A stretch of 62,142 bases of DNA, from contig JAPOYM010000071.1 of the NCBI GenBank assembly GCA_026706565.1, forward strand, positions 1-62,142, written 5' to 3'. Below, piece after piece: positions 3,794-48,268 of this stretch. This stretch comes from a bacterium (GTDB lineage Bacteria > Actinomycetota > Acidimicrobiia > Acidimicrobiales > CATQHL01). Under the pieces are notes generated by a model. The model was not told where the DNA came from. It ran no database searches and was given only the letters and a program-made list of their open reading frames with translations. How positions within the stretch are numbered: the stretch's first letter is position 1; each line of letters starts with the position of its first letter. A program made the position numbers and the translations under genes.

Positions 3794-4888
3794 TCAACTC
3801 CGGAGGTTCTGGGAGTCGGCGCCGAAGATGTGGCTTCGAGCCGGGTCGAACACCAAGCGCACGTCGGACCCCGTACTGACCCGGGTGTCGGGCGGCATCC
3901 GAACTTGCACCGCATGCCCGGCCACCATCACGCTCACGAACAGGTCCGAACCGACCGGCTCCAGGAAACGGACCACGCCGGGGAGGCCCTCGGCGTCGGG
4001 CGGGGCGAGCGTGAGATGTTCGGGGCGGACACCCAGTTGGGCTTCGCCGGAAGCCTCAGCCAGCACATAGGGCGCGATCCCCGACACTGCCGGATCCACC
4101 GCAAGTTCGTAGCCCTCCACCCGGAAATACGTCTGCCCGTTGCGGCGCTCGAGCGATCCGCCGACCAGGTTCATGGGGGGAGCACCCAGGAAGGTAGCCA
4201 CGAACGTATTGGCGGGCACGTCATACACCTCGGTGGGGTCACCCATCTGCTGGATGCGGCCGTCGCGCATCACGGCGATGCGCTGGCCCATCGTCATGGC
4301 CTCTACTTGATCGTGCGTGACGTAGATCGTGGTGATGCCGAGGCGCTCGTGCAGCCCCATCAGCTCCAGGCGGGTCTGCAGGCGCAGCTGGGCGTCGAGG
4401 TTCGAGAGCGGCTCGTCCATCAGGAACACCAGCGGCTGGCGCACGATGGCCCGGGCCAAGGCCACCCGCTGGCGCTGGCCGCCCGAGAGCTGCTCGGGCA
4501 GGCGCTTGAGCAGGGCCTCGATCTCCAGCATCTCCGCCGCCCGCTGCACGGCCTCGGCGACCTCCTCGCGGGCCATGCGGGCCGTCTCGAGGGGGAACGC
4601 CACGTTCTTGTAGACGGTCATGTGCGGGTACAGGGCGTAGTTCTGGAACACCATCGCCACGTTGCGCTTGGTGGGGTCTTTGAAGTTGATGAGCTCGCCG
4701 TCGATGAGGATCTCGCCGCGCGTGGCGTCCTCCAAGCCGGCGATGAGGCGCAGGATCGTGCTCTTGCCGCACCCCGACGGGCCCAGCAGCACCAGGAACT
4801 CCCCGTCGGGGATGCGCAGGGTCACATCCTCGACGGCTTCGACACTGCCGAAATGCTTGGTCAACTGCCGCAGGATCACCTCAGCCAT
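3794..4888 (-). CDS. ABC transporter ATP-binding protein, sugar type (MalK/UgpC family)
   Basis: Walker A GPSGCGKST, signature LSGGQRQRVALARA, Walker B FLMDEPLSNLD, and a C-terminal regulatory domain. Confidence 0.9.
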   Translation of the reverse strand: MAEVILRQLTKHFGSVEAVEDVTLRIPDGEFLVLLGPSGCGKSTILRLIAGLEDATRGEILIDGELINFKDPTKRNVAMVFQNYALYPHMTVYKNVAFPLETARMAREEVAEAVQRAAEMLEIEALLKRLPEQLSGGQRQRVALARAIVRQPLVFLMDEPLSNLDAQLRLQTRLELMGLHERLGITTIYVTHDQVEAMTMGQRIAVMRDGRIQQMGDPTEVYDVPANTFVATFLGAPPMNLVGGSLERRNGQTYFRVEGYELAVDPAVSGIAPYVLAEASGEAQLGVRPEHLTLAPPDAEGLPGVVRFLEPVGSDLFVSVMVAGHAVQVRMPPDTRVSTGSDVRLVFDPARSHIFGADSQNLRS

Positions 4889-33650: not shown

Positions 33651-34562
33651 CTAGCCGTCGACCGCCTCGCGCAGGCGCCCGACGAGACGGTCCACCTCCG
33701 CCAGCGTCTCGGGGTCGGGGTCGTAGCCCACCGGCCCCCGCCGGCGGGCGCTGGAGAAGATCCCCTGCGCCACCAGCAGGTGCTTCTCGATGGCCACGAA
33801 GGCGTCGAGGCTGTCCATCAGCGAGACCAGGCGGGCCAGCGGGTCGGCAATGGCCTCGATACGCGCCTCGTCGCCGGCCTCCAAGGCTCGCCAGAGAGCG
33901 ACCAGCGCCCAGGGGGTGTCGGCCGCCGGCATGGTGCCGACGATGCCGCGCCGGTAGCTGTCCACCAAGGCGATGCCCCCCGAGCCCTCGAAGACCCGCG
34001 CCCGGCCGTCGGTGGCCTCGCGCAGGGCGGTGAGGCGCGGACCGATGGGCACCGCCTCGGGCTTGAACAGCACCCGCTCGCCGTAGGTCTCCAGGAGGTC
34101 GGCCTGCATCGCAATCGACATCGGCCGGCCCACGTAGCCGCTGGCGTCCTGCACCACCACGGGAATATCGATGGCCGCCAAGAGAGCCTCGTAGTAGGCC
34201 GAGAGTTCGCTGTCCGGCACCCCCACCGAGATAGGCGGGATGGCCATGACCGCCGTGGCGCCGACGCTCTGGGCGTGGCGGGCGAGGTCCACCGCCACCT
34301 TGGTGCTCTCGGCCCCCACCGAGACGATCACCGGCCCGTGCGGCAGGCCGAGACCGCAGCAGAGCTCGGCCAGCTCGCGGCGCTCTTCGGTGCTGAGGCG
34401 CAACACCTCCGAGACCATCGCCAGCACGATCCCGTCGACCTCGCAGCGATACACCCACTCGATCTCGGCGGCCAGGGCGGCGGCGTCAATGCCATCGCCG
34501 TCGTCGAAGGGCGTCTGGAAGACCGGGAACACGCCGGCCAGCGACTCGGGCGGGTACTGCAC
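33651..34562 (-). CDS. dihydrodipicolinate synthase/N-acetylneuraminate lyase family protein
   Basis: GTG at 34562 gives MQYPPESLAGVFPVFQTPF... Also GIVLAMVSE and a FKPEA Schiff-base Lys region. Confidence 0.75.
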   Translation of the reverse strand: MQYPPESLAGVFPVFQTPFDDGDGIDAAALAAEIEWVYRCEVDGIVLAMVSEVLRLSTEERRELAELCCGLGLPHGPVIVSVGAESTKVAVDLARHAQSVGATAVMAIPPISVGVPDSELSAYYEALLAAIDIPVVVQDASGYVGRPMSIAMQADLLETYGERVLFKPEAVPIGPRLTALREATDGRARVFEGSGGIALVDSYRRGIVGTMPAADTPWALVALWRALEAGDEARIEAIADPLARLVSLMDSLDAFVAIEKHLLVAQGIFSSARRRGPVGYDPDPETLAEVDRLVGRLREAVDG

Positions 34563-34831
34563 GCCGGCGATGCTAACCGCCCCGGTGAGCGCCCGGTACC
34601 GAGCTGTTGGACGCGATCTGCTGCACGACCTTTGATCCACCCCAGGCGCGACTCGGTCTGGGCGGCGAAAGGTTTGTGTCTGTCCTTGCCCTCTCCGGCC
34701 CCCTGGACCGAGTCGCGCCTCCTGAAGGTCGAGACCCACATACCAGATTGGGAGGTTCCGCCCATGAACCGAGACTCCGCCGACCAGCCGGTCCTGGCCA
34801 ACTCGGTCGGGGCCGTGATCCGTCCAGGGTT

Positions 34832-34847
34832 TGGACTGACTTTGCTG
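34832..34847 (+). promoter_or_regulatory. -24/-12-like motif copy 1: TGGACTGACTTTGCTG
   Basis: TGGAC-N5-TTGCTG, 83 nt upstream of the small ORF at 34930. Confidence 0.35.
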
Positions 34848-34929
34848 TAGGGAGGGTCGACGTTCGATTCACCGTCGACCGCGGCAACTCCGCGGCTGGC
34901 TCGAGCGACCTACCGAAAGGAACGACTCC

Positions 34930-35112
34930 ATGTCAGTTTTCTCCTCCCTCTTCCGCTTCGGCTTCCGGTGCGGGCTGATTCTTGCGCTCCTGCTGTACCT
35001 GGCCATCGGCCGGGGCGGGTGCGCTGGCGGCAATTTCGCCCTCCATGACGCCTCGCCCGACACTCCGACCGCGGTCACCGCTGATCCTCCGACAGCCCCG
35101 CACCTCCCCTGA
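34930..35112 (+). CDS. small hydrophobic/secreted peptide (60 aa), hypothetical
   Basis: SD GAAAGGA lies 8 nt before the ATG. The N-terminus is signal/TM-like: MSVFSSLFRFGFRCGLILALLLYLAIGRGGCAG. Confidence 0.4.
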   Translation: MSVFSSLFRFGFRCGLILALLLYLAIGRGGCAGGNFALHDASPDTPTAVTADPPTAPHLP

Positions 35113-35122
35113 GGGGACGCCC

Positions 35123-35138
35123 TGGACGCGCCTTGCTG
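35123..35138 (+). promoter_or_regulatory. -24/-12-like motif copy 2: TGGACGCGCCTTGCTG
   Basis: Same motif, also sharing TTGCTGTAGG with copy 1. A 10-bp perfect hairpin follows. Confidence 0.35.
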
Positions 35139-35185
35139 TAGGCATCTCAGCGCCGCCATCGGTGTGGACAACCCACGGCTGATGC

Positions 35186-35211
35186 GAGCTGCGGCAGGGC
35201 GGCCGCAGCTC
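35186..35211 (+). terminator. perfect 10-bp stem / 6-nt loop hairpin (GAGCTGCGGC-AGGGCG-GCCGCAGCTC)
   Basis: Complementarity checked base by base. No U-tract is present. It lies 48 nt after motif copy 2. Confidence 0.3.
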
Positions 35212-35257
35212 ACCTGATCTCGAGCGACGCACTCCGTTCGCCGCGCCGCCCAACCCT

Positions 35258-35273
35258 TGGACGCTGCTTGCTG
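35258..35273 (+). promoter_or_regulatory. -24/-12-like motif copy 3: TGGACGCTGCTTGCTG
   Basis: Same motif, 102 nt upstream of the small ORF at 35375 and 278 nt upstream of the gene at 35551. Confidence 0.35.
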
Positions 35274-35374
35274 CAACGAATACGACGTACCCGACGGGGC
35301 GACGTGTCCTATGCACCGACCCTGTCGGGCTCGCCCATTGACACAGGTAACGCCAACAGAAAGGAGGGCCGCCT

Positions 35375-35446
35375 ATGGCCGCCGAAGACGAGAAGCCCAG
35401 CGCGCCGGTCGACGTGGACACCATCCCCGCCGGCACGTTCCACTAG
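35375..35446 (+). CDS. 23-aa small ORF (MAAEDEKPSAPVDVDTIPAGTFH), hypothetical
   Basis: Strong SD AGAAAGGAGGG lies 6 nt before the ATG. There is no homology evidence. Confidence 0.35.
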   Translation: MAAEDEKPSAPVDVDTIPAGTFH

Positions 35447-35550
35447 CCCCCGCGGCGCCGGACGCACACGCGCCCGGCGCCGCCCCCCAACGTCCGCTCC
35501 GTCCATCGGAGAGAACCGTCACTCCAACTCCCCAGAGAAAGGAAAACCGA

Positions 35551-36810
35551 ATGGAACCGACCCTCGAAACGTTCGGGCTCAGCCAGCCCGCCGAGCTGTT
35601 GCAGATGCCGTGGCTCGCGGCCTTGGCCGCCGCTGTGGTGATTTCCGGTTTGCTGCTGGCGCGGCACCGCTCCGGCAAGCGACTGGTGCGAGGCTCCAGC
35701 GCTTGGAGCGCTCGCCGCCGGCGCCCGAACAACAACCAACGCAAGATCCAACCCGAGGACTATGTGAAGGCCGGCGTCATCGGCATCGGCCACGACCTAG
35801 CCCATGCGGTCACCAAGGACCGGTCGGAAATCGCCGCCGGAGAGGCAAAGATCGCCGCCCTTCAGGAGCAAGAGGCCCGACACCTCCAGGAAATAGACCG
35901 CCTGACCGAACAGCGCGCATCCGACGATACGCGCTTCGACGCGGAGATCGAAGCGGTGAGGGAGAACTTCGCCGCCGAGGACAACGCCCCGGCAGCGATG
36001 ACCAAGAAGTGGAGCACACTCTGGGGCGGATTCTTCCTCCTAGGTGACGTCTTCGTCGTCTCACAGGCGATCATGGTGCAAGAAGGCACGGTCACGCCGG
36101 TGATTGCGTACGGCACAGCGATCGCCATTTCCCTCATGATGTGGTTTGCGGGCAAATGGCTGGGCTGCGAGTTGCGCCGCTTCCGGATGGCCCAGAAGGC
36201 CGCAAGAGTCATCGTCCCGGTGGTTCTCGTTCTGTTGGTCGTGTCGGGCGCGCTGTACGTGATGCGAACCGGTGACACCAGAGCTTGGATCGCGCTCGCA
36301 CTGGCGCCTCCACTGGGAACCGCCGCCACGAAGGTCCTCGGTCCGACAGCCAGCCAAGCCAAAGTCGCAACGCTGAGCCGCGCTAAGGAATCCGAACGAG
36401 CATCGACGCAGGGAAAGATCGACGCTCAGCGGTCGAAGATCGAGCAGAGCCTCAACGCCCGCGGCGAAGCCGCAGTCAACTGTGCCCAACGGCGGGAACA
36501 CATCCTGAGCCGGACCGACGCCGAGAAGCTGCGAGCCAAGGCCGTGTTCCACCAGGGCGGCTTCAACCCGCACAACCCGGACTACTGGATCACGCTCAAC
36601 CAGGCGGGATTCTCCGTCGAGGCCCCCGTGGACACATGCCCCCACGACCCCGACTACTGGGACATCCCCGCCAGCGCCGGTCTCCATGCGCGCCCGCGGG
36701 CAGTCGCCGCGCAGGGCCCGGGGGGCCCGCCGAACGGCATCCACCCCGCGGACGCGCCGCCGACGGTCGCGGCAACGAACGGCGCCCAGCCCGCAGGCAC
36801 CCCGGCCTGA
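35551..36810 (+). CDS. membrane protein with coiled-coil segments (about 5 TM), hypothetical
   Basis: SD GAAAGGA lies 7 nt before the ATG at 35551. It has an N-terminal TM, a coiled coil (AKIAALQEQEARHLQEIDRLTEQ), four clustered TM helices, a second coiled coil and a Pro-rich tail. Confidence 0.7.
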   Translation: MEPTLETFGLSQPAELLQMPWLAALAAAVVISGLLLARHRSGKRLVRGSSAWSARRRRPNNNQRKIQPEDYVKAGVIGIGHDLAHAVTKDRSEIAAGEAKIAALQEQEARHLQEIDRLTEQRASDDTRFDAEIEAVRENFAAEDNAPAAMTKKWSTLWGGFFLLGDVFVVSQAIMVQEGTVTPVIAYGTAIAISLMMWFAGKWLGCELRRFRMAQKAARVIVPVVLVLLVVSGALYVMRTGDTRAWIALALAPPLGTAATKVLGPTASQAKVATLSRAKESERASTQGKIDAQRSKIEQSLNARGEAAVNCAQRREHILSRTDAEKLRAKAVFHQGGFNPHNPDYWITLNQAGFSVEAPVDTCPHDPDYWDIPASAGLHARPRAVAAQGPGGPPNGIHPADAPPTVAATNGAQPAGTPA

Positions 36811-36858: not shown

Positions 36859-37665
36859 ATGAACAGGAGCCGACCAGAGCGCGCTCCCCTCGCTCCGAGA
36901 ATGGCCGCGGCGACGCTGGCGGCGCTCCTCGGCCTTGTGTCGCTCGCCTGCGACGCGGGCGGCTTGGCAAGCGCCGCCAAAGACACGGTCAAGGAGAACA
37001 CCGTAGGCGTCAACGACCCCGGAGTGCGCCGAACGATCATCATCGATCCGGGGCACCGCCCGGTTGACCAGATCCTCGACCAGGTTCACGCCGTGGCCGT
37101 CGACAGCGCCTCCCGCGGGCAACGCATCACGGTCCGGCTCGTCGGCGGAGGCAACGCCGACGCTTGGCGGGCCGTGGACCTGTCATCGGCGCACGGCGGA
37201 GACCTCCGGCGCGAGGCCCAGAACCCCACCCACCTTCGCAAGGAAGCCAACGCCAACGCCGAGGCCGTGACGGCCGCCGTCGCCGCGGCGCTCCGCGGAT
37301 TCGCCTACGACGGCAGCGGCGCGGACCTCTTCGGCGCCATCCGACGAGCCGCGACAGACCCGGTCCTGCCCCGAGAGGTCGTAATGGTCACCGGCGGGGG
37401 CGTTCACCAGACCGCCGCGCTCGACACCGTGAGCGGCTACGGGAACCTGCCGCGACTGCTCGACGCCATCCCAGCGATCGAAGCCCCCGAGACCGACGTC
37501 GTAATCATCGGCGCGGGCGACTTCACCGGGGCTGCGACCACCCCATCGGGAGAGTTCAGCGCCGCGGTCGCCGAACTCTGGGATCACGCCTGCGCCCGCT
37601 GGCGACTCCGCACGTGCGCGCTCGCAGACAATCCCGACTATCTCGCCACGCTCGAGAGCCGATAG
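36859..37665 (+). CDS. lipoprotein, hypothetical (possibly degenerate vWA-like alpha/beta fold)
   Basis: SD GAAAGGA; lipobox LVSLAC; alternating beta-strand-like segments (TIIIDPG, VVMVTGGG, VVIIGAGD). Confidence 0.65.
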   Translation: MNRSRPERAPLAPRMAAATLAALLGLVSLACDAGGLASAAKDTVKENTVGVNDPGVRRTIIIDPGHRPVDQILDQVHAVAVDSASRGQRITVRLVGGGNADAWRAVDLSSAHGGDLRREAQNPTHLRKEANANAEAVTAAVAAALRGFAYDGSGADLFGAIRRAATDPVLPREVVMVTGGGVHQTAALDTVSGYGNLPRLLDAIPAIEAPETDVVIIGAGDFTGAATTPSGEFSAAVAELWDHACARWRLRTCALADNPDYLATLESR

Positions 37666-37670
37666 CCCCG

Positions 37671-39284
37671 ATGGCCGCAACAAGACGCTGGAGCCGCGTC
37701 CGAGAACTCGCCCGCCGGGCCGACCGGCAGCACGAGTCCCCAGCACTCGGTCCCAGCGTCCGCCCCACCGACACGCACCTCGCCGGGGGCCACCCACGCG
37801 TCCGCGTCGTCGGTCCCAGCGACGGCCGACGGGACGCGGTGCGGATCGCCGAGCCGGCGTACACCGAAGCCATCGCGTCGCTCGGCGGTCTGCCCGCCGA
37901 AGCGGGCGGGCCCCTCGGCGGCGACCACCGCACGGGCATCGTCTCAGAGTTCTACCTCGACGAGTCCGCGCGGCGCGACGAGCACAGTTACTCCCCCGAC
38001 GTAGAGACCCTGAACCGGCTCTTCCGCACACAGTGGAACCCCCGGGGCCTATCTCTGCTCGGCTTCGCGCACTCGCACCCCCCGGGCGTGCCGGTGCCTT
38101 CGACCGGCGACCGGCGATACGCCCGAAGACTCCTCGCCGCCCTTCCCTCCCTGGACCGACTCCAGCTGCCCATCGTCGAACAGTCCCGCGTCGGCAACCA
38201 CATAGCCCGGGGTTTCGCCGTCGTCGACGACGGTTCATCGCTGCCGGCGGCGCAGCGAGTCTCCCTCGACACGGTCCCCGACTGCCCGACGCGCCGCGAG
38301 CCCGACCCCGCGACGTTCCTCCGAGCCTCGACCAGCTACGAGTTGGCGATCATGGCCAACACCCGCGTCGTGCTCGTCGGAGTCGGAGGGGCCGCCCAGC
38401 ACGCCGAGCACTTGGCGCGGTGCGGCATCGGCGAACTCGTCCTCGTCGATCCGGACCGGGTGGAGCCCCCGAACGTTGCAACCCAACAGGCCTATCTGCG
38501 GGACGCGGGGCGATCGAAGGTCGGCGCCCTCGCCGAACGCCTCACCGACATCAGCCCAATCCTGCGCGTCGCCGCGGTGCCCCACAGCGTCCAACAGCTA
38601 GATCTCCCGACACTGCGAATGCTGCTGCATCGGCCGTTGTTCCCCGGCGAGCCGATCGCTCCCAGACTCACGGTCACATGCGGATTCACCGACGACTTCT
38701 GGACGCAGGCCGAGGTCGCTCGCATCGCGTTGCAGGAAGGCACACCCCTGCTCGCGGGCCAAGTCTACGAGCAAGGATGCGGGGCGGAGATCGTCTTCGT
38801 GGCGCCGGGCCACACCGCCGCCTGTCACCGATGCGTCCTCGGCTCTCGCTACTACTCCTATCTGGCCGGGTTCCGCAACGACGTCACCAGCGCCGGCGCA
38901 CCTCTGTTCGCCACCGAGAGGCTCAACGCAACCAAAGCGATCGTGATGATGGCGATGGTCCACGGACTGCACCCCGACGCGGACCGCGGCCACCCCGCCA
39001 CCGCGAGATTCTCGACGCTGTTCGAGACCATCCGCGAGCGGAACCTCATCCAGATCCGCCTCACCCCTGACTTCGAGTCGATCCTCGGCGTCAGCGTCTT
39101 CGAGCGCACACTCACCGGCGCCGACAGCACACGCGTCGTCTGCGACGAGACCCTCTGGCACCCCCAGACACCGACTGCCCATCCCCCCTGCCCCGATTGC
39201 GGCGGCACCGGCGACCTCGCACAACTCGCCGGCACCAACATCGCCCCCCTGACGCGACCTGAGAACACGGAGAGGACACCATGA
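37671..39284 (+). CDS. JAB/JAMM metallopeptidase fused to an E1-like (ThiF/MoeB-family) adenylation domain
   Basis: The JAMM motif is intact: E(AGGPLGG)...HSHPPGVPVPSTGD, which fits HxHx7Sx2D (38070-38111). E1 Rossmann VVLVGVGGAAQH...LVLVDPDRVEPPNV. Cys pairs CHRC and CPDC. Confidence 0.8.
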   Translation: MAATRRWSRVRELARRADRQHESPALGPSVRPTDTHLAGGHPRVRVVGPSDGRRDAVRIAEPAYTEAIASLGGLPAEAGGPLGGDHRTGIVSEFYLDESARRDEHSYSPDVETLNRLFRTQWNPRGLSLLGFAHSHPPGVPVPSTGDRRYARRLLAALPSLDRLQLPIVEQSRVGNHIARGFAVVDDGSSLPAAQRVSLDTVPDCPTRREPDPATFLRASTSYELAIMANTRVVLVGVGGAAQHAEHLARCGIGELVLVDPDRVEPPNVATQQAYLRDAGRSKVGALAERLTDISPILRVAAVPHSVQQLDLPTLRMLLHRPLFPGEPIAPRLTVTCGFTDDFWTQAEVARIALQEGTPLLAGQVYEQGCGAEIVFVAPGHTAACHRCVLGSRYYSYLAGFRNDVTSAGAPLFATERLNATKAIVMMAMVHGLHPDADRGHPATARFSTLFETIRERNLIQIRLTPDFESILGVSVFERTLTGADSTRVVCDETLWHPQTPTAHPPCPDCGGTGDLAQLAGTNIAPLTRPENTERTP

Positions 39285-39619
39285 CCACCGTATTGGAGAA
39301 CATCAAGTACCGAGCCTCGAACGGTGAGGACTTCATGTTCGACTTCGAACTGCGCGACGACGGTTGGCGCGTGCACATAACCAGCCAACCCCGCTACCGC
39401 CACCGGAGCGCGAGCGCGCACGACACTCACCGCCTCGGCCGGGCTGAACGTCCCTACATCTGCTGGACCAACCCGATAAACGGACTCGACGACGCCTTCG
39501 GCGTCGCCGCCCTGTGGGCGGAAGCGACCCTCGTGTACATCGCGACCGGTCGCTTCAACGCGCCGCGCCGCTTACCGCGACTCCACGATCTCACCGGACT
39601 CACCCGGCTCAGCCGCTAG
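39281..39619 (+). CDS. small conserved-looking protein, possible E2(UBC)-like with HDTH...PYICW
   Basis: ATGA overlap with the JAB-E1 gene. 112 aa. The H-x-x-H...x-I-C-W spacing recalls HPN...C of UBC folds. The call is weak. Confidence 0.3.
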   Translation: MTTVLENIKYRASNGEDFMFDFELRDDGWRVHITSQPRYRHRSASAHDTHRLGRAERPYICWTNPINGLDDAFGVAALWAEATLVYIATGRFNAPRRLPRLHDLTGLTRLSR

Positions 39620-39652: not shown

Positions 39653-40381
39653 ATGGCCCGTCAACGCCCCACCCTGTTCCTCGAGACCAACGACTGGGAC
39701 ACTCACACCGCGCCGCGCCGATGGTTGGCCGTGATCCCCGTCATCGCGCTGGTCGTCGCCGCCGCCGCCATGTGGCAGCTCAACCGCCCCGAGCCGATCG
39801 GGGCGGCCTCGACCCTGCCGGTCTGCGACTCTGACCACCCGCACCTAACCGTTGTTGTCCTCGATGTCTCGCCGTCGGTGATCAGCGCGGACGGCGCCGA
39901 CCCCGACGGTCGCAGCTTCGACGAAGCCCGAGAGCTCGCGCGGCTGCTTGCCGCCGACCCCTGCACCCCCGACGACCGGTTCGCCGCCATCGTGTTCGGC
40001 GCAGAAGCGATTCTGCAAATGCCGCCGACACTGCTGTCGCAGAGCAGCGACATCGCCGCCGGCCTCCGCAACCAGGGCTACGCCAACCTCGGGGACTCCA
40101 CCGACATCTCAGCCTCAATCCGCACGGTGGACTCCATCGCATCCGATCATCCGCACCACGAACTCTCAGCCATCTGGCTCTCAGACATGATGGGAGACCC
40201 GTTCACCGAACAACACCTCCGAACCCTCGCCGCCGAGCACGCCTACCTCGTCGCGCTCGGTGACTACGACCCGTACTTCAACCAGTACTTCGACGCAGTC
40301 CACGAGATCGTCACGGTCAAACCCGGTGCCGTCGCACACGCACTCACCGAGAGCATCTCCCGCACCCGCGGCGCGCCCTGA
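39653..40381 (+). CDS. membrane-anchored von Willebrand factor type A (vWA) domain protein
   Basis: N-terminal TM (WLAVIPVIALVVAAAAMW). MIDAS-like VVVLDVSPSV (DxSxS at 39863-39877). Further vWA strands: AAIVFG and AIWLSD. Confidence 0.65.
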   Translation: MARQRPTLFLETNDWDTHTAPRRWLAVIPVIALVVAAAAMWQLNRPEPIGAASTLPVCDSDHPHLTVVVLDVSPSVISADGADPDGRSFDEARELARLLAADPCTPDDRFAAIVFGAEAILQMPPTLLSQSSDIAAGLRNQGYANLGDSTDISASIRTVDSIASDHPHHELSAIWLSDMMGDPFTEQHLRTLAAEHAYLVALGDYDPYFNQYFDAVHEIVTVKPGAVAHALTESISRTRGAP

Positions 40382-40434: not shown

Positions 40435-41781
40435 ATGAATTGCGCCAACATCCCGCGCCTCATCCGCAGCACCGCGATCGCGTCCGCAGTCGCCGTCATC
40501 GCGCTCGCCTGCGACCCCGATCACGCCACAACCCACGACACCAGCCCGGCCGAACGGGTCGCCGAACAGGCAGGCGAACAGGCAGCCGGCACCGTCGCGG
40601 CCGGCAGGACCGCTCTTCCCGAAGCGGTCGTGCTCCCCACCGGAATTCCCGGCATCAGCGAACTCACTCCACCAACACCGGACACCGTCGTCCCGCCACC
40701 CCCCGACCCCGCACCGGCGGCGCCCACAAGCGACCCCCCCGTCGTCCCGCCACCCCCCGACCCCGCACCGGCGGCGCCCACAAGCGACCCCCCCGTCGAC
40801 CGCCCACCGCCGACGTCCGCAACCGAACCGGATGCACCCCCGGTCGCCCCCGACCTTCCGCCATCCACGGCCGGACCGCCCGAGCCCGCGCCCCCGCCAC
40901 CGCCCGCAGACCCCGAACCCCATACCTGCGTCGCCTACCGCATAGACGACGTGCTCTTCAACAGCGCCGCCGCGGAACTCGCCCCCGGCGCCGAGGACAG
41001 CCTCGCCGCCGTCGCCGCGCTAATCGCCGACGACGCCCGAGTCTCCGTCATCGGCCACACCGACTCGCTGCCGTCAGCGATCGGCAACCAGCGACTGTCC
41101 GAACTCCGCGCCCAGACTGTCGCCGAGGCCCTGATCGGCGCGGGCCTGAACCCCGAATCGGTGACCGAGATCGCCGGCAGAGGCGAAACCGAACCCATCG
41201 CCGACAACGGCACCGACGAAGGCCGGCGCCTCAACCGGCGCGTCGAGGTATACATCAACTGCGCCGCCCGACAACACCGAAGCGCCGCGTCCGAAGCAGG
41301 CCGAGGCAGCGCCGCTGCGAACCCGACCACCCCCGCAGACCCGACGACCGACGACCCCGAGGCCGTGCCAGCGGGCCCCAGAAGCGAACCCGAGGCCGAT
41401 ATGCTAGGCATGGTCGGCGAGTTCCGAGCGGACCTCGAACTGCAGCCACTTCTGCACCATCAACAGCTAGCATCCGTCGCCCGTGCCTGGTCAGCCACAA
41501 TGGACACAACCGGACGGCTAGAGCACAATCCTGACTACACAAACCAGTATCCCACGGGTTGGCTGTCAGCTGCCGAGAACATCGCGTTCGTAACAGTACC
41601 CACAACCTCACCAGAATCGCTCGCAGAGGCAACCATGATCGCCTTCCAAGGACTTGTCAACAGCCCACCGCACTACAAGAACCTCACCAACCCGACGTTC
41701 ACCCACATAGGAATCGGCATACACCTAAGCACCGATACCCTGTGGGTAACCCAGAACTTCGCGCACTATCCACCCGAATAG
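40435..41781 (+). CDS. lipoprotein with Pro-rich linker, OmpA-family peptidoglycan-binding domain and C-terminal CAP/SCP (PR-1-like) domain
   Basis: Lipobox IALAC. OmpA_C motifs: VIGHTDSLPS..GNQRLSELRA..V and NRRVEVYI. CAP motifs: HNPDY, NIAF, SPPHYKNL, THIGIG. Confidence 0.75.
   Translation: MNCANIPRLIRSTAIASAVAVIALACDPDHATTHDTSPAERVAEQAGEQAAGTVAAGRTALPEAVVLPTGIPGISELTPPTPDTVVPPPPDPAPAAPTSDPPVVPPPPDPAPAAPTSDPPVDRPPPTSATEPDAPPVAPDLPPSTAGPPEPAPPPPPADPEPHTCVAYRIDDVLFNSAAAELAPGAEDSLAAVAALIADDARVSVIGHTDSLPSAIGNQRLSELRAQTVAEALIGAGLNPESVTEIAGRGETEPIADNGTDEGRRLNRRVEVYINCAARQHRSAASEAGRGSAAANPTTPADPTTDDPEAVPAGPRSEPEADMLGMVGEFRADLELQPLLHHQQLASVARAWSATMDTTGRLEHNPDYTNQYPTGWLSAAENIAFVTVPTTSPESLAEATMIAFQGLVNSPPHYKNLTNPTFTHIGIGIHLSTDTLWVTQNFAHYPPE
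40687..40794. repeat. perfect 54-bp tandem duplication (18-aa VVPPPPDPAPAAPTSDPP x2) inside the linker
   Basis: 40687-40740 is the same as 40741-40794 by eye. Confidence 0.85.
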
Positions 41782-41786
41782 CCACC

Positions 41787-44700
41787 ATGTCACCCAGCGC
41801 CTCGTCGCGGCTCGACCAGCACCACCTCGCATCGCTGCACAAACTCACCGACGAGCACCTAATCAAGCTCCTCAATGAGATCCTTCCGCTGAAATGCGCT
41901 CACGGCTCCGTCGAAGCGGAACGCCTGGAATGGCATGACCCATGCTGGGAGACACGCCCCGCCTTGAAGCGCGTGCGACGATTGTCCCTAGAACTCTCCG
42001 TCAACAACCCCAACGGGCGTAGCCGTAGCAGGGTCACCCTGCCGTTTCTCTGGCCATTGGGCGAGGAGGCTTGCGCCGAACCGTACCCGCTAGAATATGT
42101 GCGCCTCGGCGGCCCTGCGACGTTCATCGACGCGCTACCGAAGGTGGCGGTAAGCCAAAGAACGTACCGTCCCGGGTTGCACTTGTTTCGTCACGATTTC
42201 CGCTACTCGGGTCGTCAATATTCGGGCCGACGACTAGTTCTTATGCCGGACATCGGCCCGAGCATACGAATCTACAAAACAAGCATCGGACGAGATCAGA
42301 CAAGCAGTGAATTCGACCCAGCTCCAGACGACCACGCGCCTCCACTCGCCAAGTCGCCCCCAAGGTCGTCGTTCCGAGTGTCGATCTATGGGCTAGGAAG
42401 CGGGACAGCTGTCTTTGAGAATGCCGAACTCATTGGTTGCGCCGATTCCGGCCAGACTCGCGCGCCTCACGGGACGCCCCATACCGCTAACCTAGGGGCC
42501 CTCTGTGATCGTCTCCTAGGACAGAATCGACCCCCCTTGGCATTTTTCTCGGACGCGACAAGGGAGCGGATCTCCGAAGCGGGAATACGACTCGACGATT
42601 CCAGCTTACAGGACCTATGCGGCCTCTTGTTCAGCTTGGATAAGGATGGAGCTGAACCTCCGGAGTATGGACATGAACTCTCCGAAGCGACTCTCCGGAC
42701 GCAGCACCACGGCGACATACTGGAGTCGATTCTTGTGGAATCGCTGCTAGCGGCTGTGGAGCGATTCCATCTCGGCAAGCCCGATCAGGCCGCGGCGCTC
42801 GGCTCTCTACTGAAGTCCATGTTCCAGCAGATTTACAACCGGATGCATCGCGGCGGAGACCGCCAGCCTGCACTGCTGGTGACCGACGACGACCGTAACA
42901 CGCTCGCCAACCTCGAGGCCCGGCGAAAGACGACTCGATACAGTCCCGAGATTCCCCGAGAGATTCGGTACTGGCTCTGGACCCGTGACATCGACCCAAG
43001 CGACCGTCGCCGTCTCTGCCCGCTCCAAACTCCCGAGTCAGCCGACCTTGGATACGTGCGATTCTTGGCCCTCGGAGATGGATATGCCGACGAGCACTCA
43101 GGGATCGCCGATCTTGACGCGCCCGACTTGGACCTTGACTCGAGCGACTTGAGCGCCGCCGCCTCGCTCATTCCGTTCATCAATCACAACGACCCGACGC
43201 GCTCGGCCATCGGCTCAAAGAACCTGAAGCAGGCGCTGCCACTCGCAGGGGCGAGCGCGCCGCGAATCCGGTCGGGCACCGAAGCGGCCCTCGCCGAAGC
43301 ACACGGCACGGCCCGTCTGCCCGCAGGGCCCGACGCGACTGTTCTAGAGGTATTCGAGGACCGGATCATCGTGCAGCGCCAGGAAGGCGCCCCGCGTGGG
43401 GCGGAAGTCCTACCGTTCGGCTACCCGCACCCCACCGGCCACACCGCCGACGGGCGCTGGAAACTGCTCACGACACCCGGCGACACCCTCAGCGCAGGAA
43501 CCGTGTTCGCGCACGCCCCCGACGTCGTCATCGACTGCGGCGAACCCACTCTCGCTCTCGGCACCGACGTGCTCGTGGCGTTCACGCCCTGGTTGGGGAT
43601 GAACTACGAGGACGCCATCGTCGCCAGTGAGGCTGTCGTCGACCGGATGGCTTCGTTGCATTCTCTTCGCATCACCGAGCCGCTCGGCGCCTATGAGACT
43701 CTGCGGCCGTCGGTCGAGGCGGGTGCCGAGGTCGTCGCCGGCGACGAACTGCTGAAGATCCTCGGCCCCGACTCGAAGACGCGTCGCTCCGTCGTCGCCC
43801 CCGAGTCCGGAGTCCTTGAGGAGGGCCCGCGCGTCGAACCGGTCATCGGCCCTCGTGAGAGCGGTGACAGTGACGACGCGGTCTCGGGCGAGATCGTCAT
43901 CCGGCTCAGGACCAGCAGGCGTCTCGCGGTCGGGGACAAGCTAACCAACCGCCATGGCGGCAAGGGGGTGGTTTCTGCGATCCTGCCCCCATCGAGCATG
44001 CCGAAACTCCCCGACGGACGCCACGTTGAGATGATTCTCAACCCGCTCGGAGTGATCCGGCGTTTGAACATCGGCCAACTGTTTGAGACCCATGAGAGCC
44101 TGCTCGCCGACCTCGAGGAGGGCGGACCCCGCATCGTCGGCCGCCGGATGAGCCCGCAGCGTCGGGGCGAACTCGCCTCCGCCCTGGCCGAGCGTGGCGC
44201 CCCGGGCGGGCGGCTGGTGCTGGAATGCGCCGACGGCACCGTGCTGGACCGCCACGGCGGCGTTGTCGCGGGTTGGCAGTACATGCTGAAACTGGACCAC
44301 CTGGTGGCGGACAAGCGCAACGAGCGTCTCGCGGCGTTCGCCGGGCCGCGCGACCGGCAGCCCGTCCGCGGCTCGACGTTCGCCGGCGGCGTCCGGCGGG
44401 GAGGCGCCAAACGTTGCGGCGAAATGGAGATCTGGGCCCTTCGGGCCAAGGGCGCATCAGAGTTCTTGGATGAGACCCTCACTGCACGCAGCGGTTTCGC
44501 CCCCGGCACGAATCCCACCCTCGCCAGCGTCGACGCCCACCTGAGAACTGCCCAACTCGCTGTTGACCACACCACCGGGGCGGTCAAGCTACTGGACGCA
44601 CGAGACACCAAGGCCCTGGCGCCCGTCATCTGCGAGGAGATCACCGAACCTACGACGAACACTCCCCAGTACGCCTCCGCCGCCAGCCACGGCCTCTACC

Positions 44701-47222
44701 GCCCCGATTGCCACGGTGACTTCGAGAAGGCCGGAGCATCTTGTGCCTGCGGTTCCGTGTGGCAATCCGGCGCCAGATGCGCGTCCTGCCACACGACGCC
44801 CCGACCCGACCCACACCCGGAGCGCTTGGCGGTGCGATACCACATCAAGTTGCCGGCACCGGTGAAGCATCCGTGGTTCCGGCCGTCGCCGAGTCAAGGC
44901 GCAAGCTCTTGCGTAGCCTCGCGCATTCATCGCGAACACCGCCGGGCTGCCGAGCTCGAGCACCTGTGCTGTGCGAATCATGATCCGGACGTCGTTCGGC
45001 ACCGTGACGAGAACGGTCGATCCTCCGCGCTCGAACGCGTTCGGGAATCGCTCGCCGAAGAGGGTCACCAACCGATTGCGATGACCCACGACTGTCGTCG
45101 CGCGCGATTGTACGTGTTCACCGACCGTGGCCGACTCGCGGAGTTCGACCTTGCCGAAGGCGCGGCGGGGGACTTCGTGCGGGATTGGTTCATCGAGCAC
45201 CGACGCGCCGGGAATCCCGAATTGCCCCCGGATGATGTCCAGTTCCTTGCGCTCGAACCCAACGGATTCCCGGTCATCAACTACGGCAAGGACGACCAGA
45301 GCAGGGATATTCTCCGGACCGCCACTCCGGCGTTGCACGTCGTTCCGATACTGCCCCCGGCCTATCGCAGGTTCGGGTACGAACCCCTTGACACCCTCTA
45401 CGAGCGACTCATCCGTCTAGTCGCTCTGGTGGAAGAGAACCGAGAGGCGGCAGTGATGGGGGTGGAACGGCAACTTGTTCGGGCCATCCTCGGCGGACCG
45501 ACCGACAAGCCGGATCACGGCACCATTTCCGGTCGGCTGAACGGCAAGCACGGCCTGATTCGCCGTGGACTGAGAGGACGGCACAACAACTCTGTCGCCC
45601 GAAACGTCATCACGCCCCAGACAACGCTCGGCCTCGAGGAGGTCGGGCTGCCGTCTGGCACCATGGCGGAGCTCCAACTCCGCGACGGGGACGTCGTTGT
45701 CGTCAATCGCCAGCCCACCCTACGCCCATCGAACGTCGTGGCGCTACGCGCCAGGGCCCACGACGGTGACCACGTCGCACTTCACCCAATGATGTCGAAG
45801 CAGTTGGCCGGCGACTTCGACGGCGACGAAGTCACGTTGCACTGCCCCAGCGACGGACAGGTGGCGGTCGACACCTGGAGGCGTCTCAGACCTACGAGCG
45901 AACTCCTCAACGACACCGATGGTCAGCCCACCATGGCGCCCGACCTCGACGTCGCCCTCGGAGTCCACCTTCTCTCGATGTCGGATGCCGGTCGCGTCGA
46001 ACTCTCGAAGCTCCTGGACGGTGGCGAGCAGCCGGCCGGCAACGGGTCAGCCGGAGTCGAGTCCGCTGTCGGCGCGGACCAAGCCGTCGAACTGGTCCGG
46101 GCCGCCTACAGTGCCCTCGCAATCGATCCAGAACGCGACCCTTGCGCGGTCATCGAGGCGCTCTTCGAGGCGACGACCCGCGCCTGCCTGGGTTGGTCCG
46201 CTTCGCTGCTCGACGACGCGTTCCTGGAAGACGGCGCGCGGCTGAGGATGCTGGAACGTACCGGCAACGACGAACTGGACGGTCCTCGGTCCGACTGGCT
46301 CGACGAGGCGATCGCAGCAGGCGTCGCGGGAGGGGCAGGCGGTCTGCGCCAACTATTCGTCGAACGCGGCAGCCTCCCGACCTTCACACCCGGCAAGTCG
46401 ACGCCGCGAGTCGGGTCGTGCTTCCTCGACGGCCTCTCGTCCGGCGACGTCTTCGCGACAGCTCCCGGGGCGCTGGCCGCGCTGGTCCAGAAGAAGCTCG
46501 TGACGCCTCAGGCAGGACACGTCACAAAACGGCTGGCAGACGCGCTGTACGACTTTGTCGTGGCAGCGGAGGATTGCGGCGTCGGGCCCGATGCCACAGG
46601 ACACCGCGACGCTCTTCATTGCGCCCTCGACGGATCTTGCTGCGCGGCGTGCGTCGGCCCGCTCCCCTCGGGCAGGAGCGCAGATGTCGGGGATTTCATC
46701 GGGCTGCGAGCCGCGATGCTGATCGGCGAACGCTGCACCCAGAAAGCCATGAAGACCTTCCACGGAGGCGGCACCAGCGACGACGTCCGCGGCATTGTGC
46801 CCGAACTCGAGGCAGCGTTCGGCTTTCGCGCCAACCACCCGCAGGAGTCAGGGCTCTCGTTCAGGGACGCATTGAAGGCCGACGATCCTCCAGCGACGCT
46901 ACGCCGTCTCGCCGGACAGACCGCCGCGGCCCTCGATGGCGGCGTGCATGAATCCTTGATCTGCATAGCTCTGAGGCGGGTACACGACCTCGCCCGACAA
47001 GCCGAAGCGGAGGCCGCTGTCGGTCCGCTCCCTCGGGTGCCCGCAGGACCGAACAACCAAGCCGCCAGAGCGAATCCACTCCTGCACGCATCCACCATTG
47101 GGCACCTTCGACCCATCCTGGATTCCGTCGAATGGCCGGTACGCCACGGCCCTTCCGGCCAGCAGTTGCGCGATGCCTACTGGCCCGTCGCCCGTCCTGC
47201 CCGACCCGAAGCCAGGCGGTGA
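41787..47222 (+). CDS. single-chain RNA polymerase: fused, shortened beta (RpoB-like) + beta-prime (RpoC-like) homologue, 1811 aa
   Basis: Beta motifs occur in canonical order: KVAVSQRTYRPGL (cf ERVIVSQLHRSPGV), CPLQTPESADLGYV (cf CPIETPEG.NIGLI), SLIPFINHNDPTRSAIGSKNLKQALPL, NYEDAIV, GDKLTNRHGGKGVV (43932-43973), LNPLGVIRRLNIGQLFETH, YMLKLDHLVADK and CGEMEIWAL. Beta-prime motifs follow: Zn ribbon CHG..CACG..CASC, HIKLPAPVKHPWF, VPILPPAYRRF, NGKHGLIRRGLRGRHNNSVARNVI, NRQPTLRPS, AGDFDGDEV (DFDGD at 45813-45827), a bridge-helix-like GHVTKRLADALYDFVVAAEDCG, and a trigger-loop-like LIGERCTQKAMKTFHGGG. Confidence 0.85.
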   Translation: MSPSASSRLDQHHLASLHKLTDEHLIKLLNEILPLKCAHGSVEAERLEWHDPCWETRPALKRVRRLSLELSVNNPNGRSRSRVTLPFLWPLGEEACAEPYPLEYVRLGGPATFIDALPKVAVSQRTYRPGLHLFRHDFRYSGRQYSGRRLVLMPDIGPSIRIYKTSIGRDQTSSEFDPAPDDHAPPLAKSPPRSSFRVSIYGLGSGTAVFENAELIGCADSGQTRAPHGTPHTANLGALCDRLLGQNRPPLAFFSDATRERISEAGIRLDDSSLQDLCGLLFSLDKDGAEPPEYGHELSEATLRTQHHGDILESILVESLLAAVERFHLGKPDQAAALGSLLKSMFQQIYNRMHRGGDRQPALLVTDDDRNTLANLEARRKTTRYSPEIPREIRYWLWTRDIDPSDRRRLCPLQTPESADLGYVRFLALGDGYADEHSGIADLDAPDLDLDSSDLSAAASLIPFINHNDPTRSAIGSKNLKQALPLAGASAPRIRSGTEAALAEAHGTARLPAGPDATVLEVFEDRIIVQRQEGAPRGAEVLPFGYPHPTGHTADGRWKLLTTPGDTLSAGTVFAHAPDVVIDCGEPTLALGTDVLVAFTPWLGMNYEDAIVASEAVVDRMASLHSLRITEPLGAYETLRPSVEAGAEVVAGDELLKILGPDSKTRRSVVAPESGVLEEGPRVEPVIGPRESGDSDDAVSGEIVIRLRTSRRLAVGDKLTNRHGGKGVVSAILPPSSMPKLPDGRHVEMILNPLGVIRRLNIGQLFETHESLLADLEEGGPRIVGRRMSPQRRGELASALAERGAPGGRLVLECADGTVLDRHGGVVAGWQYMLKLDHLVADKRNERLAAFAGPRDRQPVRGSTFAGGVRRGGAKRCGEMEIWALRAKGASEFLDETLTARSGFAPGTNPTLASVDAHLRTAQLAVDHTTGAVKLLDARDTKALAPVICEEITEPTTNTPQYASAASHGLYRPDCHGDFEKAGASCACGSVWQSGARCASCHTTPRPDPHPERLAVRYHIKLPAPVKHPWFRPSPSQGASSCVASRIHREHRRAAELEHLCCANHDPDVVRHRDENGRSSALERVRESLAEEGHQPIAMTHDCRRARLYVFTDRGRLAEFDLAEGAAGDFVRDWFIEHRRAGNPELPPDDVQFLALEPNGFPVINYGKDDQSRDILRTATPALHVVPILPPAYRRFGYEPLDTLYERLIRLVALVEENREAAVMGVERQLVRAILGGPTDKPDHGTISGRLNGKHGLIRRGLRGRHNNSVARNVITPQTTLGLEEVGLPSGTMAELQLRDGDVVVVNRQPTLRPSNVVALRARAHDGDHVALHPMMSKQLAGDFDGDEVTLHCPSDGQVAVDTWRRLRPTSELLNDTDGQPTMAPDLDVALGVHLLSMSDAGRVELSKLLDGGEQPAGNGSAGVESAVGADQAVELVRAAYSALAIDPERDPCAVIEALFEATTRACLGWSASLLDDAFLEDGARLRMLERTGNDELDGPRSDWLDEAIAAGVAGGAGGLRQLFVERGSLPTFTPGKSTPRVGSCFLDGLSSGDVFATAPGALAALVQKKLVTPQAGHVTKRLADALYDFVVAAEDCGVGPDATGHRDALHCALDGSCCAACVGPLPSGRSADVGDFIGLRAAMLIGERCTQKAMKTFHGGGTSDDVRGIVPELEAAFGFRANHPQESGLSFRDALKADDPPATLRRLAGQTAAALDGGVHESLICIALRRVHDLARQAEAEAAVGPLPRVPAGPNNQAARANPLLHASTIGHLRPILDSVEWPVRHGPSGQQLRDAYWPVARPARPEARR

Positions 47223-48268
47223 CTGAATTGATCACCTCCGGAGTGCGAGCGGGGCGCGACCGGCGACGCAGCGCAAAGCCAGACACCGATGCTCTCACAC
47301 AACCGAACGCTCGCCGCCTAGCTCGAGTCCTGGTATCCACTATTGCTTCACCGACTGCACACGAGATCCAGCACCTCGATAGCGACGAACCGCTTGATGA
47401 CGATCCCTTGGATATGGTGCCCGACGGCTGGGAGGACGAAGAGCCGGATGCTCCGACGGCCTTCGACGAGGCGTCGCCGACGGCCTCGGGCCGCACTGCC
47501 CCACCCACAGCGGTTCTTGAGTTCTTCGTCCGCCCGGGGCCGCTGTCGGATGTCGCCGTCGAGGTGAACGCTCCGCTGCCCCAAGAGCATCACCTCGGAG
47601 TGGCTGGGCTTCCGCTGGTTCAAGCCGAATGGTTGGAACGACGTCGACACCTTGAGGCCGTCGGCGTCTGCATCCTGAACCGTCAACTACCCGCCATTCA
47701 GTCGACCGACCCGCGTCATGCCTACAGATCCTTGCGCCCGATGACCAACGCTGATTTGAACGAATCCGCTGGCACACGCGGCTCGGGCTGGGCTTCCCGC
47801 AATCGGACGGCTCCGGTCGCCTGCCCCTGGGGCCTCGTTCGACTGGAGTTCTTCACTTGGGGGATCGGTCCCGGACGCGTCGCCGTGTACGAAGCGCTGC
47901 TCAACGCTGTGTTGATTGACGGCGCTGCCGGTGGAGACACCGCCATCGCCCGCGACGCGCGCGACCAAGCCATAGCGGCTCTCGAAACATCGTCCGACTC
48001 TGCTCTGAGGCAGTCGACGCTCTCAGAGCAGGCACGCACGCAGCTCCCAGCTCTCGACAGCGTCCGTAAGTTGGTTTCCGTCGCTCGTTCGCTGGGAGCA
48101 CCTCAGACCTCCGCCTACATCGCGACCCTTCGACGCGACTCATTGTTCTGGAGCGACGACCTAATCGGAGCTAACGCCATGCTCGCCTCATCGCTTAGCG
48201 ACAGAGGCCTCCAGTTGGCAAGGTTCGCCGTGGCTGGATGGGAGGGGGGCAAGCAGTGGATGCCTTGA
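47219..48268 (+). CDS. sigma-54 (RpoN)-like protein, divergent and shortened (349 aa)
   Basis: GTG at 47219 overlaps the polymerase stop (GTGA). There is an acidic N-terminal segment. LERRRHLEAVGVCILNRQ, LRPMTNADLNE and SRNRTAPVACPWGLVRLEFF align by eye with E. coli RpoN LEARNDTLLRVSRCIVEQQ, MKPMVLADIAQ and [22 protein letters not shown]. Confidence 0.7.
   Translation: MTELITSGVRAGRDRRRSAKPDTDALTQPNARRLARVLVSTIASPTAHEIQHLDSDEPLDDDPLDMVPDGWEDEEPDAPTAFDEASPTASGRTAPPTAVLEFFVRPGPLSDVAVEVNAPLPQEHHLGVAGLPLVQAEWLERRRHLEAVGVCILNRQLPAIQSTDPRHAYRSLRPMTNADLNESAGTRGSGWASRNRTAPVACPWGLVRLEFFTWGIGPGRVAVYEALLNAVLIDGAAGGDTAIARDARDQAIAALETSSDSALRQSTLSEQARTQLPALDSVRKLVSVARSLGAPQTSAYIATLRRDSLFWSDDLIGANAMLASSLSDRGLQLARFAVAGWEGGKQWMP

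Follow-up and report, generated by a model that had tools for sequence, protein, structure and literature searches.

A recurrent TGGACGC-N3-TTGCT motif as the probable sigma-54-type promoter of islands encoding a fused beta-beta' RNA polymerase

Promoters of the canonical sigma-54 (RpoN) class share the consensus TGGCAC-N5-TTGCW, in which the GG and GC doublets are separated by 10 nt. We analyzed a 62,142-base stretch of bacterial DNA (contig JAPOYM010000071.1 of assembly GCA_026706565.1; hereafter the window), in which copies of a similar motif occupy the leader of an operon that ends in the genes for a fused beta-beta' RNA-polymerase-like protein, a sigma-54-like protein, and an AAA+ ATPase resembling bacterial enhancer-binding proteins (bEBPs). 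The consensus of the window copies, as a sigma-54-type promoter, is tTGGACGC-N3-TTGCTg with a GG-to-GC distance of 9 nt instead of 10 nt. We consider it probable that the motif serves a polymerase system private to the island, as a promoter of the sigma-54 type in which the spacing is shortened. With the canonical promoters activated by NtrC, PspF, or RtcR, the motif has in common the bipartite arrangement of GG and GC approximately one helical turn apart, as well as the letters TGG, AC, N5, and TTGC[T]. The likeness extends to the proteins, as the island encodes, in the adjacent genes, a Sigma54_activat AAA+ ATPase with a GAFTGA-like loop and a factor homologous, at the family level, to the DNA-binding domain of sigma-54. 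On the other hand, the island departs from the canonical system not only in the spacing but also in the factor itself, which is ~250-440 aa long across the related loci, carries no detected Region I or core-binding domain, and travels with a fused polymerase of its own. Furthermore, at least two related loci belong to a phylum reported to be devoid of sigma-54.

Three other groups of described systems are comparable to the island in part. Partial 'RpoN' matches found in Alloactinosynnema, Modestobacter, and Citricoccus (Actinomycetota) were dismissed as not bona fide (PMC12316311); like the island factor, they are related to sigma-54 without scoring significantly in each of its three domains, and they come from a phylum that otherwise lacks it. 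Self-contained transcription by mobile elements is represented by T7-like polymerases, the non-virion polymerases of phiKZ/AR9, and YonO of SPbeta (PMC5467207, PMC7598289, PMC9209446), and the likeness to the island lies in an element polymerase related to cellular beta/beta' and a private promoter placed before the element's own genes. Nevertheless, these systems use neither a factor of the sigma-54 type nor an AAA+ activator, and their promoters are unrelated to the motif described here, being AT-rich or, in AR9, uracil-containing. The island itself looks like a chromosomal one, for which no relative was found in IMG/VR. Finally, the fused rpoBC of Helicobacter and Wolbachia combines beta and beta' in one polypeptide as the island protein does, but the former is a full-length housekeeping enzyme of ~2,850 aa, whereas the latter comprises ~1,811 aa, scores below the cutoffs of the housekeeping models, and is encoded in an accessory island. 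No description of the system was found in the literature searched, which lacked many subscription papers.

An exact search of both strands for TGGAC-N5-TTGCTG yielded three matches in the window, each of them on the + strand (34832-34847, 35123-35138, and 35258-35273). The count expected by chance was 0.04, as estimated from 100 dinucleotide-preserving shuffles, none of which gave three matches. When one mismatch was permitted, an extra copy, TGGACGCGATCTGCTG, appeared in the same leader (34608-34623, + strand), and the only remaining match in the window was located at 46627 within the polymerase gene. The original prediction claimed three copies confined to the leader and no further exact match elsewhere in the window. 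The three quoted sequences, their leader position, and the absence of other exact matches are all correct, but the leader contains four copies rather than three. Repeat finding picked up the copies independently as the families D1, D8, and D9. All four reside within a gap of ~990 nt between a DHDPS-family gene (33651-34560, - strand) and position 35551, where the long genes of the + strand operon begin.

We number the copies, all on the + strand, in the order of their positions. Copy 0 (TTGGACGCGATCTGCTGCA; 34607-34625; repeat D1) bears CTGC in place of TTGC in the -12 element and is the positional equivalent of a site at 1893 in one of the related loci (L010), which precedes a gene for a 240-aa protein. 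Copy 1 (TTGGACTGACTTTGCTGTAGG; 34831-34851) is followed after 81 nt by an open reading frame (ORF) starting at 34930, and resembles the GGACTGA-N2-TTTGCTG subtype seen in the related loci L005, L008, and L009. Copy 2 is CTGGACGCGCCTTGCTGTAGG (35122-35142). Copy 3 (TTGGACGCTGCTTGCTGCAAC; 35257-35277), the final motif ahead of the 14-kb operon, lies 100 nt upstream of a small-peptide ORF that begins at 35375. The distance between GG and GC is 9 nt in all of the four copies, and every exact copy retains the two doublets inside TGG...TTGC[A/T], in agreement with the earlier claim that GG and TTGC were kept at a spacing 1 nt shorter than the canonical one. The window and the related loci L001-L005 contain neither TGGCAC-N5-TTGC nor TGGYAY-N5-TTGC. 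If transcription starts ~12 nt past the GC, the starts would be expected near 34633, 34857, 35148, and 35283.

To evaluate the motif across genomes, we used 12 loci (L-numbered; 280 kb in total) fetched around homologues of the fused beta-beta' polymerase. The polymerases of these loci are 33-52% identical to that of the window and represent ~10 lineages sharing <70% mutual identity. The pattern GGAC-N5-TTGCT, which was derived from the window only, matched 20 times in the 12 loci, 19 times in intergenic regions and once within a gene, while intergenic regions account for 9.8% of the DNA. The gaps of N2-4 and N6-9 gave 0-1 intergenic and 0-4 genic matches, that is, no enrichment. The GG-to-GC distance is 9 nt at all 19 intergenic sites, and, wherever a same-strand gene is called, the motif faces it from 37-265 nt upstream with a mode of ~40-60 nt. 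Altogether, no other intergenic signal recurs as often as the motif in 11 of the 12 homologous islands, and the recurrence of the same sequence at the same spacing in front of genes supports the original proposal of a cognate sigma-54-type promoter.

Two further analyses led to the same motif. A matrix built from 23 sites outside the window assigned the four highest scores in the window to copy 2 (24.9, the window maximum), copy 3 (22.1), copy 1 (19.3), and copy 0 (18.6), and the next-best position across the 62 kb, on either strand, scored 9.0. The matrix scan detected no motif above background within the operon or upstream of a gene for an HD-CE-domain protein (50523-53099, - strand) that lies beyond it. 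When all dyads of the form 4-mer/gap/4-mer were enumerated in the intergenic DNA of 11 other loci, pieces of the motif ranked first; the top dyad, GGAC-N6-TGCT, was found in 20 intergenic and 2 genic positions (70-fold) and outranked the signal composed of the ribosome-binding site and ATG. The consensus across the loci is cTGGACGC-N3-TTGCTg; its GGAC and TTGCT blocks have an information content of 1.5-2.6 bits per position, the flanks of ~0-0.3 bits. As the flanks carry nearly no information, the conservation of the motif is a footprint rather than an outcome of shared noncoding ancestry. The motif persists among polymerases of at most 52% identity, so that a relic of local duplications can be dismissed, and chance is excluded by the cross-locus result as well.

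The same data bear on whether the motif is a promoter for a sigma factor of another type or acts in RNA. The block TTGGAC resembles the -35 hexamer TTGACA, and GGAC resembles the GGAAC of the -35 element in promoters for extracytoplasmic function (ECF) sigma factors, so that a host sigma-70-family or ECF promoter was a candidate. However, TTGCT invariably follows after 5 nt, much too near for a -10 element, and the positions 16-18 nt past GGAC are unconserved (~0-0.5 bits). On these two grounds the candidate was ruled out. In addition, the leader in the window bears no match to the sigma-70 consensus, and the motif is restricted to the islands bearing the three genes; we regard such a promoter as very improbable. 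The motif lies always on the sense strand 5' of genes and structured RNA elements are found nearby, as would be expected for a site of processing or protein binding in a 5' untranslated region. Nevertheless, no conserved promoter that could transcribe the motif is found upstream (the flank information is ~0), no Rfam match was obtained, and the two conserved blocks with a variable spacer do not form a conserved stem. An RNA element of this kind, or a duplication relic as mentioned above, thus appears highly improbable.

The motif varies to some extent among the islands. The -12 element reads TCGCT instead of TTGCT before a gene for a 400-aa membrane protein in L001, L002, and L010, while the -24 element varies to CTGAC or CGGAC in the clade of L005, L008, and L009. 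In L012, the most distant of the motif-bearing clades, one site directly precedes the polymerase gene at a distance of ~40 nt. No other locus is arranged in this way, and the motif precedes accessory or cargo genes in most of them. Two arrangements were noticed on the side. L007 possesses a tandem triple of the motif at 4101, 4201, and 4305 (+ strand), ~100 nt apart, before the homologue of a conserved 268-aa-protein gene, and this mirrors the leader in the window. L009 possesses identical 22-nt copies, TGCGGACTGGTTTTGCTGTAAC, at 2918-2939 (- strand) and 3280-3301 (+ strand), which point away from each other within an intergenic region between divergent genes, at ~56 nt from a start codon in either case.

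The three genes that close the operon, namely those for the fused polymerase, the sigma-like protein of ~250-440 aa, and the bEBP-like ATPase (hereafter the trio), are kept in this order in all 13 loci including the window. The sigma-like protein of the window (P0069; 349 aa; 47219-48268, + strand), which NCBI names 'hypothetical protein' and for which NCBIfam holds no model, belongs to a rare family that is, at the family level, homologous to the sigma-54 DNA-binding domain as judged by sequence and profile comparisons. When 1.84 billion representatives were searched exhaustively with HMMER, 59 relatives of 131-434 aa were retrieved, with no full-length sigma-54 among them. Among the 57 aligned members of the family, 15 individually matched Sigma54_DBD of Pfam with the best E of 5e-16, while a Pfam scan of 10 distant members gave no Sigma54_DBD match, the choice of the 10 being arbitrary and uninformative. 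The profile of the 57 members matched RpoN of A. aeolicus in PDB with an E of 3.5e-4, together with 14 further sigma-54 chains; a profile made from 9 homologues matched nothing in PDB. By hhalign, the family positions 129-229 were aligned onto the residues 332-433 of E. coli sigma-54 with an E of 4e-4 (476 of the 477 positions of the E. coli sequence used agree with chain 9mse_M), and one bridging member of the family was directly aligned to the residues 324-457 of sigma-54. In the comparison with an AlphaFold model of the protein, the four best Foldseek matches were all sigma-54 chains and clear of the fifth, albeit their E-values of 0.06-0.09 are not significant alone. Altogether, the Sigma54_DBD, PDB, hhalign, and Foldseek matches and the bridging member uphold the 'sigma54-like' label given in the original prediction at the level of the family. 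The family alignment recovered a single locus, identical to L005, from genome contigs and nothing from metagenome contigs or the viral contigs of IMG/VR.

The way in which the motif differs from canonical sigma-54 promoters may be reflected in the sigma-like proteins. The C-terminus conserved in the close clade, G-x-x-L-A-R-F-A-[VI]-A-G-W (RGLQLARFAVAGWE in the window), resembles the RpoN box (G-I-M-V-A-R-R-T-V-A-K-Y) by eye only, as the profile alignments ended before this segment; the counterpart of ARRTVAKYR in sigma-54 reads ARFA[IV]AGW in the islands. The RpoN box is the part of sigma-54 that reads the -24 element. The part reading the -12 element is the better conserved portion of the sigma-like protein, and TTGC is unchanged in the motif. 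From this pattern in the sequences, we infer that an altered reader of the -24 element may correspond to an altered and shifted -24 element. No clear pattern of co-variation between the RpoN-box-like variants and the -24 variants was seen across the clades.

The ATPase (48238-49833, + strand) matches Sigma54_activat of Pfam (PF00158) with an E of 8.6e-28, above the cutoff, and possesses Walker A (GDSGTGKS), Walker B (FLDEFGD), and an arginine-finger region (FRNDLVQRF), all of which agree with the earlier call of a bEBP-like protein. Its L1 loop, EIFGAAPGTYTGV (GTYTGV), is aligned with ELFGHEAGAFTGA (GAFTGA) of PspF. The clade-wide form of the loop is E[FL]FGA.PG.YTGV, with G-[TNQK]-Y-T-G-V at the place of GAFTGA among the members of the close clade, and the equivalent loop is divergent in L012 and L013. 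In the N-terminal 217 residues of the ATPase, which may constitute a sensor, no known domain was recognized. Neither Pfam nor NCBIfam detected a DNA-binding domain (C-terminal helix-turn-helix) in the ATPase, and some known bEBPs also lack this domain. This point bears on whether the motif could be an operator or enhancer bound by the ATPase or another island protein, with the promoter located elsewhere. The motif recurs 5' of genes, tandem copies are present in the window and L007, and enhancer sites are frequently multiple, as expected under this explanation. However, besides the lack of a detectable DNA-binding domain in the ATPase, the motif is asymmetric, strictly oriented towards genes, and bipartite at approximately one helical turn, and it agrees with the sigma-54 consensus at TGG, AC, N5, and TTGC[T]. 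Moreover, the start codon lies just 37-56 nt beyond the motif in many loci, and nothing else is conserved between the two, so that there is no room for a separate promoter downstream. We thus regard an operator or enhancer as quite unlikely.

The polymerase gene (~41787-47222, + strand) encodes a protein of ~1811 aa, in which Pfam detected Rpb2_6, Rpb2_7, Rpb1_2, and Rpb1_5, so the earlier call of an RNA-polymerase-like protein was sound. The catalytic motif AGDFDGD is kept at residue ~1346. The protein is matched by the beta/beta' fusion models of NCBIfam, while its matches to rpoB and rpoC fall far under the equivalog cutoffs; it is therefore not a housekeeping orthologue. A search of 5.8 billion proteins yielded ~28 fused beta-beta' proteins of similar size, indicating a rare family, and a scan of genome contigs with the single polymerase sequence returned no relatives. 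In the NCBI annotation, the gene is given as a 'hypothetical protein' of 1459 aa, but the other gene calls of the cluster give 1811 aa, and the public annotation thus probably misses the N-terminal part.

Which core enzyme the sigma-like protein would work with is a separate question. It may read the motif together with the core RNA polymerase of the host, in which case the fused protein would be otherwise employed, for instance as an effector polymerase or an enzyme synthesizing primers or RNA. The homology of the sigma-like protein is confined to the DNA-binding part of sigma-54, its contact with the fused polymerase is hypothetical, and the fused enzyme, at its size, lacks many accessory domains; all of these are compatible with the use of the host core. 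Nevertheless, the genes for the sigma-like protein and the fused polymerase are adjacent in all 13 loci, where the stop codon of one often overlaps the start codon of the next, and no core-binding domain is recognizable with which the sigma-like protein could dock on the host core. The likely hosts further belong to a phylum without sigma-54 (PMC12316311), and we consider the use of the host core unlikely, albeit not negligible. As for the hosts, one related locus is of Candidatus Aldehydirespirator (Acidimicrobiia, Actinomycetota), and another related protein carries the name Propionibacteriaceae. Since Actinomycetota is reported to lack sigma-54 (PMC3162934, PMC12316311), the involvement of a host sigma-54 is unlikely in at least some hosts.

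Thus, we judge it likely that the motif copies are -24/-12-type promoters cognate to the island sigma-54-like factor, most likely working with the fused polymerase. In the mechanism that we propose, the 349-aa protein would recognize the motif and most likely load the single-chain beta-beta' RNA polymerase of the island, and the adjacent bEBP-like ATPase would open the promoter with ATP via its GAFTGA-like loop. Every copy would begin a short transcription unit, comprising a gene remnant for copy 0, a 60-aa ORF for copy 1, a hairpin RNA or read-through for copy 2, and the IPAGTFH peptide for copy 3, and the last copy would also feed the 14-kb operon that ends in the trio. The machinery could reinforce its own expression after first being synthesized from a promoter of the host type. 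Such positive feedback, which corresponds to the autoregulation suggested in the original prediction, is plausible because the trio genes lie downstream of copy 3 with no intervening motif, the intergenic gaps in the operon being 0-53 nt.

Several points weigh against this proposal. Canonical sigma-54 is generally held to be intolerant of changes in spacing, and the resemblance of the motif to its promoters could therefore mislead. The 349-aa protein has no Pfam match of its own, and its AlphaFold model is of low confidence (predicted local distance difference test, or pLDDT, of 53), owing to a shallow alignment for which word-based searches gave the protein itself only and then 4 proteins; the homology to sigma-54 accordingly depends on family-level, transitive evidence. 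No Region I (PF00309) or core-binding domain was found in the sets of 9 and 57 members at E<=1 to 10. The argument based on the lack of sigma-54 covers the hosts of related loci only. Among the islands, L011 possesses the -12 element only as a GTGC variant, and no convincing site was found in L013. Within the leader, copy 2 is followed by no convincing ORF but just by a hairpin, and the 60-aa ORF downstream of copy 1 had no homologue in the other loci by tblastn.

The features that the original prediction placed downstream of the copies are present in the leader. Past copy 0, a 28-codon ORF (MNRDSADQPVLANSV...; 34764-34850, + strand) overlaps copy 1 with its end, as read from the sequences. 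The window and L010 share the promoter (copy 0 in the former), the ribosome-binding site, and the first ~15 codons of the 240-aa gene in the latter (1981-2703; MNQRSADHPTLTNSV...). As the ORF stops after 28 codons, it looks like a deletion remnant of this gene, though it is too short to be confirmed by tblastn at E<0.01. The same predicted leader past copy 0 contains a 23-nt inverted repeat (34644-34720; 87% complementary with a 31-nt loop), and the fold of 34634-34763 has a z of -2.5. Downstream of copy 1, the 60-aa ORF (34930-35112, + strand) encodes a hydrophobic N-terminus. Its ribosome-binding-site repeat, CCnACnGAAAGGA (D4), is common to the ORFs starting at 34930, 35375, and 35551. Copy 2 is followed by a perfect 10-bp hairpin (I15; 35186-35211, + strand) with no T-tract after it, and the fold of 35150-35256 has a z of -2.0. 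Neither Rfam nor a terminator consensus scan found anything credible in the leader, and terminator-like sites occurred at chance frequency.

The first gene after copy 3 encodes a conserved small peptide of 23 aa (MAAEDEKPSAPVDVDTIPAGTFH; 35375-35446, + strand). Homologues are present in L001 (2768-2875; tblastn E of 0.009 with the window peptide) and L010 (3045-3152), each ~43 nt downstream of a motif, while the peptide ORF in L007 (8318-8485) is composed of four tandem GDEIPAGSFHG repeats. The conserved core of the peptide reads (D/E)(E/T)IPAG(T/S)FH. A stable GC-rich hairpin (I7; 35452-35483, + strand; -29.6 kcal/mol, z of -4.56) lies 3' of the peptide gene, and comparable hairpins likewise trail the gene in L001 and L010.

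The operon, which we delimited by third-position G+C and Pfam, comprises on the + strand the genes for a 419-aa membrane protein (35551-36810; the first long gene), a conserved 268-aa protein (36859-37665), a JAB+ThiF (E1-like) protein (37662-39284), a 112-aa protein (39281-39619), a vWA protein (39653-40381), and an OmpA+CAP protein (40435-41781), followed by the trio. The JAB+ThiF, vWA, and OmpA+CAP proteins were assigned by Pfam, and the 268-aa and 112-aa proteins have homologues in the other loci. The genes 5' of the trio vary among the loci but are drawn from a common pool, consisting of the 268-aa protein, JAB-E1 with a ~115-aa protein, OmpA, vWA, and CAP. The JAB+ThiF fusion found in the window (37662-39619 with its partner), L001, L003, L006, L007, and L010 is always followed by a protein of ~112-118 aa (55-61% identical), and its E1 part matches the 'E1-E2' (CBASS Cap2-like) models of PADLOC. 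For the 112-118-aa protein, a role as a ubiquitin-like or E2-like partner is possible, and the small peptide could serve the E1/JAB module as its substrate, as a signal, or as a precursor peptide. A sigma-70-like match, TGGACA-17-CACAAT (41501-41529, + strand), is located where the OmpA/CAP gene ends, just 5' of the polymerase gene. As a pattern match only, it could be a source of basal, host-driven expression of the trio.

Outside the operon, the left neighbors in L001 and L010 are SGL and DHDPS as in the window, with DHDPS being 66-71% identical. The gene for the 858-aa HD-CE-domain protein mentioned above is convergent to the operon and has a G+C content of 52-55%, in contrast to ~68% in the window around it; homologues occupy the same place in L010, L001, and L002. 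In the distant clade represented by L012 (3283-8515), the trio stands beside GmrSD-like, SMC-like, and REase-ARP genes in a defence-island-like neighborhood. Genes for large leucine-rich-repeat proteins or ~670-aa TrwB-like proteins (coupling-protein-like, by a faint match) recur beside the trio in L005, L008, L009, L007, and L011, which hints at a mobile or conflict-related element. PADLOC 2.0 placed the polymerase and the sigma-like protein in no catalogued defence system.

On balance, we lean towards the view that the islands, some of which are in Actinomycetota, encode a full private sigma-54-type machine that serves as an ATP-gated switch for cargo, probably with a role in conflict or defence. 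The machine would consist of the single-chain polymerase, the miniature sigma-54 relative, the bEBP-type ATPase, and the TGGACGC-N3-TTGCT promoter with 9 nt between GG and GC, and the cargo would be the E1/JAB module, the vWA, OmpA, and CAP proteins, and the conserved IPAGTFH peptide. If so, the motif would constitute the cis-acting half of an orthogonal transcription system not described before, in which a compact single-chain relative of the cellular RNA polymerase acts together with a sigma-54-like factor of minimal size and an activator ATPase. The system would be directly testable via the motif, with four predicted starts and clear point mutations, and would offer a ready set of promoter, factor, activator, and polymerase for synthetic biology. 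It would also imply that sigma-54-type recognition is workable at a different GG-to-GC spacing and would provide a natural experiment on the co-variation between the RpoN box and the -24 element. A sigma-54-type mechanism would then operate in at least two actinomycetotal hosts, despite the phylum being reported to lack sigma-54. Finally, the motif would define the regulon of the island and may therefore be a pointer to the function of its cargo genes.

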